Notes under the pieces: generated by a model
What the model saw: the letters and a program-made list of their open reading frames with translations, nothing else
Told to the model about the DNA's origin: nothing
Databases searched by the model: none
NCBI RefSeq assembly: GCF_003334355.1
Contig: NZ_QOWP01000028.1
From: Escherichia coli
Lineage (GTDB): Bacteria; Pseudomonadota; Gammaproteobacteria; Enterobacterales; Enterobacteriaceae
Length of the DNA: 53,280 nucleotides
Direction: 5' to 3' (one strand)
Position numbers and translations under genes: made by a program
Part shown: positions 14,443 to 14,749 of the stretch, in pieces
How positions within the stretch are numbered: the stretch's first letter is position 1
Layout: every line of letters starts with the position of its first letter

Positions 14443-14479
14443 TTAAAAGCCATACAAGACTGATGGCAAAGGCAAAAAT

Positions 14480-14578
14480 GCCTGATGCGCTCCGCTTATC
14501 AGGCCTACGAAAATTCTGCAATGTATTGAATTTGCACGATTTTGTAGGCCGGATAAGGCGTTAACGCCGCATCCGGCA
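14480..14578. repeat. REP/BIME element pair in the dppA-dppB intergenic region
   Basis: gcctgatgcgctccgcttatcaggcctac and gtaggccggataaggcgttaacgccgcatccggca in inverted orientation; an additional hairpin at 14617-14647. Confidence 0.7.
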
Positions 14579-14749
14579 TAAACAAAGCGCACTTTGTCAA
14601 CAATCTGTATACCCGGTGGCGCTGTGCCTCTGCGTGCAGCGCCATCCGGCAGCAATACTTCATTCCCTGTCCGATAAGGGCGGGAATTGATTTGTGAGCA
14701 ATACAGACACGCAGTTCCAGGCTGCGGGTCACTATAGAGAATCCGGGTT

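Follow-up and report, generated by a model that had tools for sequence, protein, structure and literature searches.

We analyzed a 53,280-nucleotide (nt) stretch of Escherichia coli DNA (contig NZ_QOWP01000028.1 of RefSeq assembly GCF_003334355.1), hereafter the window, and in particular the spacer that separates dppA from dppB in the dppABCDF operon. The binding-protein gene dppA occupies positions 12835-14442 (+) and ends with the stop codon TAA at 14440..14442, as read from the open reading frame (ORF) list and the RefSeq annotation of the 100%-identical K-12 sequence; the same annotation identifies dppB at 14750-15769 (+), leaving a spacer of 307 nt at 14443-14749. Positions 14000-15200 are 100% identical to K-12 strains, and coordinates were converted as MG1655 = 3720540 - window position, a relation confirmed by the MG1655 gene coordinates. 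A first-pass annotation made from the letters had named these genes correctly according to RefSeq; its further names yhjG and yhjD were likewise correct, and yhjG, yhjE, and yhjD were placed by MG1655 mapping. The spacer RNA is predicted to fold with a minimum free energy of -124.3 kcal/mol (z = -7.2 vs shuffles), and its strongest structure is a hairpin at 14613-14649, here termed hairpin 3. We consider it likely that the region combines two layers, an optional bacterial interspersed mosaic element (BIME) of the BIME-1 family and a conserved core comprising hairpin 3, a Rho-dependent drop in transcript, and the dppB leader (Table 1).

Table 1. Features in and around the dppA-dppB spacer (window positions)
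Feature	Position	Strand	Details and basis
Stretch ending in CATAC, 13 nt	14443-14455		Directly 3' of dppA stop
Left CATAC copy	14451..14455		5-bp direct repeat flanking BIME-1; filled/empty allele alignment
BIME-1 (RIP/RIB) unit, 152 nt	14456..14607		Rfam matches, fold, multi-genome presence
Left outer arm of BIME-1	14457-14479		
REP 1, Y-type	14480-14508	+	GCCTGATGCGCTCCGCTTATCAGGCCTAC
L linker, 35 nt	14509-14543		
IHF-consensus-like site (predicted)	14519..14531	-	ATTCAATACATTG, 12/13 to WATCAANNNNTTR; within L linker
REP 2, Z1-type, inverted	14544-14577		
Right outer arm of BIME-1	14578-14607		Imperfect inverted repeat of left arm, with which it pairs imperfectly
Right direct-repeat copy	14608..14612		TATAC in window; CATAC in CFT073, E. 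albertii, and others
Hairpin 3	14613..14649	+	15-bp stem, -27.3 kcal/mol; fold; 3'-end hairpin of dppA mRNA
Mapped RNA 3' end	14651	+	MG1655 3705889(-), Adams 2021 Term-seq; 2 nt past foot of hairpin 3
Hairpin 4, terminator-like	14660..14690	+	-14.5 kcal/mol, then AAUUGAUUUGUG; fold, terminator scan
Motif UGUGAGCAAU	14693..14702	+	MG1655 3705838-3705847; predicted single-stranded linker between hairpins 4 and 5
Hairpin 5	14706..14730	+	9-bp covarying stem GACACGCAG/CUGCGGGUC, loop UUCCAGG, -12.7 kcal/mol
dppB ribosome-binding stretch + AUG	14731..14752	+	CAYUAnAGAGAAUCCGGGUU; alignments A3, A4
Rho termination region peak	14873	+	MG1655 3705667(-), 123 nt into dppB; Adams 2021 supplementary file 2
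75-aa ORF (probably spurious)	14505..14732	-	PGAP "hypothetical protein" in some records; BIME-1 + hairpins 3, 4, 5 sequence

Two inverted repetitive extragenic palindromic (REP) units had been proposed for this spacer, and both were recovered. For REP typing we took the Y head to be GCCTGATG and the Z head to be GCCGGATG. Used with the definitions of PMC3333891, these heads give the layout GCCTGATG...GGCCTAC at 14480-14508 (+) and GTAGGCCGGATAAGG...CATCCGGC at 14544-14577, with both units turning their GTAG/CTAC ends toward the linker, that is, in inverted orientation. The REP tail TTATCMGGCCTAC lies at 14496-14508 (+) and 14544-14556 (-); it has 6 matches in the window vs 0.05 expected by chance, all of them within the four places at which the first-pass annotation had named REP clusters. 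The predicted hairpin energies of the two REPs are -13.2 and -20.9 kcal/mol. BIME-1 is defined as y + z1 + a long L linker at one copy per locus, the linker frequently carrying an IHF site (PMC3333891), and since Y, L, and Z1 are present here as a single unit, the spacer element is, on all family features readable from the letters, a textbook BIME-1 (RIP/RIB) with a predicted IHF site.

The Rfam model ES036/CssrF matched the linker at 14501-14543 (-) with 56.7 bits (gathering score 37.6), whereas naRNA4, a REP-pair model with half-length matches on the dpp, yhjG, and yhjD REPs, scored 38.4 in the dpp spacer, below its gathering score of 59.5. Because both models describe BIME linker or REP sequence that recurs genome-wide, the ES036 match is no evidence for a small RNA (sRNA) gene. 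ES036 (CssrF) in effect models the BIME-1 L linker and passes its threshold at BIME-1 copies whatever their sRNA gene status.

The dpp unit is essentially identical to the BIME-1/RIP/RIB elements described previously (Gilson 1991; Boccard and Prentki 1993; Oppenheim 1993; reviewed in PMC3333891), sharing the inverted Y + Z1, the ~35-nt L linker with an IHF-type site, the single-unit arrangement, the location at a 3' end, and the dispersed, multicopy, extragenic distribution, typically at 3' ends, of that family. The REP/BIME finding is real and was rightly described, and it is ordinary, being already known as a kind. Details beyond the family description are the mutually pairing outer arms of ~23-30 nt within the unit, the 5-bp direct repeat, and an apparently recurrent precise loss. 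The unit matched a median of 7 places per genome; whole-unit copies of 82-91% identity were identified at mog/satP, cgtA/dacB, gudD/barA, and aspC/gloC, all between convergent genes, and the L linker was near-identical in five other copies. In genomes lacking the dpp copy, the best match was another copy of the unit elsewhere that spanned window 14457-14614, which argues that the outer arms belong to the repeated unit.

In our survey of 5,426 complete E. coli genomes, the BIME-1 was present at the dpp site in 3249 (~60%), and a subsample of 60 genomes evenly spaced along the match ranking contained 36 filled and 24 empty alleles. The spacer of O157:H7 and other strains is 150 nt long and lacks exactly window 14456-14612, so that the empty site reads GCCATAC joined directly to CCGG and the filled site GCCATAC-[152 nt]-(C/T)ATAC-CCGG. 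E. albertii and a divergent Escherichia representative carry the insert at the identical junction, with 9-15 differences per 157 nt, in line with their flanks. Because the junction is shared and the insert has diverged about as much as its surroundings, these comparisons indicate that the filled state is ancestral and that the BIME-1 is old at this site. Among 32 Enterobacterales dppA-dppB spacers (109-458 nt long), no BIME-1 was found in any other genus sampled, and hairpin 3 and the leader persist there without it.

Empty alleles occurred on at least 4 flank haplotypes, distinguished by variants of the hairpin-4 loop, and each haplotype is also known in a filled form: K-12 (filled) and HH45 (empty) share the first, 13P477T (filled) and IHE3034 (empty) the second, EC1639 (filled) and O157, O145, TOE51, and B1.H1.1 (empty) the third, and 2015C (filled) and S40 (empty) the fourth. 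Between CFT073 (filled) and IHE3034 (empty) we counted 0 differences in 656 positions of the left flank and 1 in 774 of the right. This pattern suggests repeated precise deletion between the CATAC repeats as the simplest reading, which could proceed by slipped mispairing aided by the long hairpin or through a REP-associated transposase; very short-patch recombination is the alternative. An ancestral BIME-1 copy repeatedly and precisely lost between 5-bp flanking repeats is apparently novel.

The insertion also moves hairpin 3 from 13 nt (empty allele) to 170 nt (filled allele) past the dppA stop. REPs within ~15 nt of a stop codon reportedly stall terminating ribosomes, an observation attributed to Liang, Rudd and Deutscher in 2015. 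Filled and empty alleles might differ in DppA yield, and these natural alleles offer a ready-made experiment on the effect of a BIME on an adjacent gene.

It is an evenly balanced question whether the BIME-1 has any role in dpp at all or is a selfish or structural repeat (an IHF/gyrase site or RAYT substrate) lodged in a permissive 3' untranslated region (UTR). Absence of a role would fit the presence/absence polymorphism with its repeated precise loss, the occurrence of the same unit at unrelated convergent gene ends, and the conservation of the IHF-type site between copies. Against it stand the retention of the BIME-1 at this site since before the split of E. coli and E. albertii, and the shift of hairpin 3 just described, which could matter for translation termination; neither is a functional test.

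Downstream of the BIME-1 lies the more constant part of the spacer. The first-pass annotation had noted a further stem-loop at 14617-14647, which we extend to the 15 pairs of hairpin 3. In contrast to the BIME-1, hairpin 3 is single-copy in E. coli (median 1 place per genome). At the same position, Leclercia, Superficieibacter, and strain RIT691 carry a long palindrome of two inverted REPs (CCCGGCGGCGCTGCGC...GGCCTAC-loop-GTAGGCC...GCGCAGCGCCACCCGG), and Citrobacter has a recognisable REP (GTAGGCCGGATAAGCGCAGCGCCATCCGGC). In E. coli, each arm of hairpin 3 corresponds to an outer half of the palindrome found in Leclercia, Superficieibacter, and RIT691. The hairpin therefore looks like the relic of an older pair of inverted REPs that has shrunk to a unique structure, and the present BIME-1 would have inserted just upstream of this putative relic.

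Mapping of RNA 3' ends across the junction had been proposed as the check on this region, and published Term-seq data for MG1655 in three conditions provide it (Adams 2021; PMC7815308). Ends do exist in the spacer: the sole curated one, 3705889(-), occurs three times in supplementary file 1 of that study and falls at window 14651, by the very stem-loop that had been singled out and 74 nt downstream of the second REP. The printed 61-mer of the entry equals window 14601-14661, the listing spanning -50..+10 around the end, and this register was checked against the proK CCA end (10 nt from the printed end) and the dppA "internal 1516" and dppB "internal 418" entries. No curated 3' end was listed at the REPs (14480-14577) or after hairpin 4. 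The idea of a 3' stabiliser and attenuator thus fits the hairpin and not the REPs, which have no curated end and belong to an optional BIME; a sequence that carries no curated 3' end and is missing from ~40% of complete genomes cannot be the essential device.

The same study mapped a Rho termination region that peaks within dppB, with a Rho score of 2.06 (p = 3.6e-5) at MG1655 3705667 from DirectRNA-seq with and without bicyclomycin; reads across it fell from 234 to 64 in untreated cells and from 250 to 141 with bicyclomycin (PMC7815308). Read-through thus increases when Rho is inhibited, as expected of Rho-dependent attenuation. A partial terminator had also been proposed for this spacer, and that part of the claim survives as the Rho-dependent drop inside dppB; no intrinsic terminator was identified in the spacer itself, as hairpin 3 runs into CAGCAAUACUUC with no U-tract, and the U-tract of hairpin 4 is weak and interrupted, with no curated 3' end behind it. 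The same authors state that RNAs terminated by Rho usually undergo trimming by 3'-5' exonucleases (PMC7815308).

On these grounds we propose that the complete BIME-1, set between the CATAC repeats 13 nt past the dppA stop, would lie within the dppA 3' UTR and not at the transcript end, and that hairpin 3 would mark the stable 3' end of the dppA mRNA. Transcription continuing past it would be cut by Rho in the first ~120 nt of dppB, and the terminated RNAs would most likely be trimmed by 3'-5' exonucleases back to hairpin 3 as a protective structure. The presumed outcome is a long-lived dppA message and fewer dppBCDF messages, with hairpin 3 as the putative stabiliser.

Between the mapped 3' end and the dppB start codon, we identified an invariant 10-mer (14693-14702) with a hairpin on either side (14660-14690 and 14706-14730), none of which the first-pass annotation had mentioned. 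In the 32 Enterobacterales spacers, the upstream parts are unrelated between genera and the last ~65 nt are conserved, running from a hairpin whose sequence varies, through (A)UUUGUGAGCAAUA and another hairpin, to CAYUAnAGAGARUNCGGGWU-AUG; in the window, 14731-14749 reads AC UAUAGAGAAUCCGGGUU, immediately 5' of the dppB AUG. Most motif-bearing Enterobacterales have a non-homologous hairpin at the hairpin-4 position, in Pectobacterium and Brenneria a stem followed by a run of T, and the motif UGUGAGCAAU is nearly invariant across the Enterobacterales leaders. The 458-nt spacer of Brenneria roseae carries tandem copies of a stem + T-run unit, a species-specific array, upstream of the conserved leader.

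Hairpin 5 showed covariation. In a plain MAFFT alignment of 11 sequences, 5 of its 9 pairs were compensatory and 81.8% of cells were paired, vs 27-45% in slid controls in which partners were shifted by 1-3 columns; in a 25-sequence alignment to covariance model R1, the corresponding values were 8 of 9 pairs and 88.9% vs 31-43%. Model R1 matched upstream of dppB in 25 of the 32 Enterobacterales loci, and we found no other match in the 53-kb window and none in an outgroup set of 50 dppB loci from other orders. No Rfam family matched over the conserved leader. Applied to 30 leaders aligned with plain MAFFT, RNAalifold returned no structure, because the variable hairpins were misaligned, and it was replaced by a gap-poor Enterobacteriaceae alignment with a named structure followed by the covariance model. 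A scan of the spacer for a sigma-70 promoter of dppB gave 0 hits, and neither a convincing -10/-35 pair nor a convincing CRP site in the conserved motif was found by eye. We suggest that this leader, composed of hairpin 4, a single-stranded UGUGAGCAAU, the covarying hairpin 5, and a weak ribosome-binding site, probably gives dppBCDF separate control, most plausibly through pairing with the sRNA RyhB.

Several points weigh against this layered interpretation. Term-seq gives the position of a 3' end and not its origin, so that 14651 could mark endonuclease cleavage or pausing and termination at the hairpin, and the curated list may suppress weaker neighbours, so that minor ends may occur at the REPs or hairpin 4. 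The Rho score is modest, and dpp was not listed in the differential-decay survey of Dar and Sorek 2018 and its supplements. The 25-sequence alignment was fitted to the covariance model, and the hairpin 5 statistics obtained there lean toward structure. Finally, BIMEs are reported to promote Rho-dependent attenuation (Espeli 2001, as cited in PMC2817692), and wherever a strain has the element, it may therefore still influence the dppA:dppB ratio.

The motif UGUGAGCAAU is perfectly complementary to RyhB nt 41-50 (AUUGCUCACA), with 10/10 Watson-Crick pairs. The RyhB sequence was checked with a 90-mer whose single locus of 100% identity lies in the yhhY-yhhX gap and which matched in 5,425 of the 5,426 genomes; the locus scored 83.1 bits with RF00057, in whose consensus the nt 41-50 segment is invariant. 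Accessibility-corrected 14-nt scans (full-length RNAduplex gave meaningless long duplexes and was discarded) predicted a hybrid energy of -14.9, a target opening cost of 4.2, a RyhB opening cost of 1.2, and a net of -9.5 kcal/mol, making 14693-14702 the best predicted RyhB site in 14580-14820, ahead of a runner-up over the dppB start codon (-5.4). In 22 of the 32 Enterobacterales, the leader contains a RyhB complement of 10 nt or more at 54-64 nt before the dppB AUG, and flanking changes lengthen it to 12 nt in Erwinia endophytica and 11 nt in Pectobacterium, Hafnia, and E. psidii; in Pantoea stewartii, the complement is in a register shifted by 2 nt.

Published data bear on this candidate. 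In its passages on RyhB-dependent operons, Beauchene 2015 counts dppBCDF, and not dppABCDF, among those whose RNA is decreased by RyhB (fur vs fur ryhB, anaerobic), calls it a new candidate with no site given there, also mentions oppBCDF, and describes RyhB effects as generally ~2-fold. Both DppD and DppF contain a [4Fe-4S] cluster that is required for assembly of the complex (PMC12136057), which fits the iron-sparing logic of RyhB. When Salmonella is placed in iron-restricting egg white, expression of dppB, dppD, and dppF is already down at the first time point and the change in dppA is not yet significant, a weak and circumstantial parallel. The conserved position, the listing of dppBCDF as a RyhB-repressed candidate, and the Fe-S ATPases together raise the prior for pairing, and a site between a dppA message protected by hairpin 3 and dppB would explain why dppBCDF was listed without dppA. 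We therefore put forward, at a little under an even chance, that UGUGAGCAAU is a direct RyhB pairing site through which iron starvation would shut down DppBCDF and spare dppA via hairpin 3; as a specific candidate RyhB site, it looks to be so far undescribed.

That UGUGAGCAAU is conserved for some other reason, its complementarity to RyhB being coincidental, we rate just short of evenly balanced. It could form part of a rut region, provide RNase E context (GA|UUU just upstream), act as a ribosome standby or enhancer site, or serve another RNA or protein target, and the stretch is C/A-rich, G-poor, and located ~170 nt ahead of the mapped Rho region. Predicted energies by themselves do not make a persuasive case and are not significant at the scale of the window, which contains 2 perfect RyhB-core 10-mers vs 2.3 expected; in predicted net energy, the site comes only 13th among ~7,600 non-overlapping ones. 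No RyhB-dppB chimera was present among the Hfq-CLASH matches listed, which were made without iron limitation, and dppB was absent from the RyhB ribosome-profiling tables; Wang 2015 does not include dppB and marks dppA "N/F", which we take to denote a RyhB candidate without validation. At 48-57 nt before the AUG, the motif also falls outside the window in which initiation is usually blocked, so that RyhB would have to recruit RNase E, interfere with a standby or enhancer site, or promote Rho termination. A coincidence is harder to reconcile with a match to the invariant RyhB core, with the predicted single-stranded state of the motif, with its fixed distance from the AUG in the 22 species, where flanking changes extend the complementarity and do not erode it, and with the reported RyhB repression of dppBCDF without dppA.

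Other sRNAs were considered as partners. In a published target table (PMC3318445), dppB and dppF appear under OmrA, and GCAAUACUUC at 14651-14660, which directly follows the 3' end from Term-seq, can base-pair with the 5' seed of OmrA/B (net ~-7 kcal/mol); this OmrB seed match is weaker and the stretch is not conserved outside Escherichia, and we set OmrA/B aside as partner of the leader. The "GcvB targets" dppB/D/F are operon effects acting via dppA (PMC8534726). The oppBCDF operon has also been named as possibly affected by RyhB/Fur (PMC4676285); the 85-nt MG1655 oppA-oppB spacer holds a terminator-like hairpin with a U-tract and, by eye, no RyhB complement of at least 8 nt.

The iscRSUA operon offers a parallel for the proposed RyhB step. 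In work attributed to Desnoyers in 2009, RyhB is said to induce differential degradation of iscRSUA by pairing that covers the iscS ribosome-binding site. The dpp arrangement resembles it in having an intercistronic sRNA site (a candidate one), an upstream cistron that would be protected by a strong 3' structure and have its message spared, and downstream cistrons encoding iron-using proteins, here DppD and DppF with their [4Fe-4S] clusters (PMC12136057), and differs in that the candidate motif lies well upstream of the dppB AUG and between two hairpins. If true, the site would link iron sparing to peptide and haem import via the Fe-S ATPases and would represent iscRSUA-like discoordinate control of an ABC importer operon, a second clear sRNA-driven case. 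What this analysis adds to the REP/BIME finding is a dispensable and apparently repeatedly lost BIME, a conserved covarying leader, and a testable candidate RyhB site; the conspicuous repeat is optional, and the conserved post-transcriptional machinery would be the less conspicuous downstream part formed by hairpin 3, the Rho drop, and the leader.

Two further explanations of the 3' end fare worse. The original suggestion that the REP/BIME units themselves serve as 3' stabiliser and partial terminator draws on their stable hairpins and on precedent, since REPs are documented as mRNA stabilisers and BIMEs as Rho-dependent attenuators (PMC3333891, PMC2817692) with malEFG as paradigm (PMC5927463). 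Like malE-malF and hisJ-hisQ, dpp has the binding-protein gene first, strong extragenic hairpins, and a 3' end in the spacer, and by this parallel more binding-protein mRNA than permease/ATPase mRNA is expected. A stabiliser of the malE-malF type would have the stable upstream mRNA end at the REP hairpin; the sole curated spacer end in dpp lies downstream of the BIME at a single-copy hairpin, apparently a REP-derived relic. The population can also do without these REPs: the ~40% of E. coli and every other genus sampled that lack the BIME still have hairpin 3 and the leader. The extended, structured, untranslated spacer, beyond which transcript levels fall in a Rho-dependent way, recalls the BIME attenuation of Espeli, Moulin and Boccard 2001; the Rho region of dpp lies ~260 nt downstream of the BIME, inside dppB. 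We regard the REP-based explanation as unlikely. It is improbable to a like degree that hairpin 3 or 4 is a leaky intrinsic terminator and 14651 its direct product, for although both are G+C-rich stem-loops, the terminator scan picked out hairpin 4 (tail AATTGATTTG), and a stem + T run stands at its position in Pectobacterium and Brenneria, the scan is weak (2 terminator-like sites vs 0.6 +/- 0.8 in shuffles), no curated end follows hairpin 4, and the lack of a U-tract after hairpin 3, with the end just 2 nt past its stem, makes direct termination there unlikely.

The 75-aa ORF on the reverse strand has been recorded under WP_001300936.1 (K-12 J53) and WP_000198577.1 (CFT073) by the Prokaryotic Genome Annotation Pipeline (PGAP). 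It is probably a spurious call, being built of BIME and hairpin sequence in a frame that cannot exist where the BIME is absent, as it is in 40% of genomes.

The first-pass annotation had pointed to similar REP clusters after proK, yhjG, and yhjD, and all three are present. The cluster after proK gave a naRNA4/REP match at 12186-12265 (69 bits, above the gathering score), that after yhjD contains two REPs at 46064-46160, and that after yhjG is a second BIME-1 with an L linker at 44259-44419, including an ES036 match at 44357-44398 (+) and an equivalent IHF-type 12/13 site at 44369-44381. This copy is oriented oppositely to the dpp one and separates yhjG from yhjE, two convergent genes; it has kept the right outer arm of the family unit and not the left.

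Upstream of dppA, we found that 168 bp of MG1655 (3708467-3708634) are missing from the window after proK (12073-12180). The missing segment is a repeat unit with a copy of the tRNA 3' end and terminator, annotated by PGAP as "RtT sRNA" in K-12 J53. The proK-dppA region otherwise holds two single-nucleotide polymorphisms vs MG1655 (12406 and 12593), so that the window, although K-12-like, does not derive from MG1655 itself. A strong 3' end in Adams 2021, seen in several conditions, falls at window 12740 (MG1655 3707800) in the dppA 5' UTR, 95 nt before the AUG, which suggests premature termination or a stable 5' UTR fragment; it lies close to the GcvB-dppA chimera region in the Hfq-CLASH tables.

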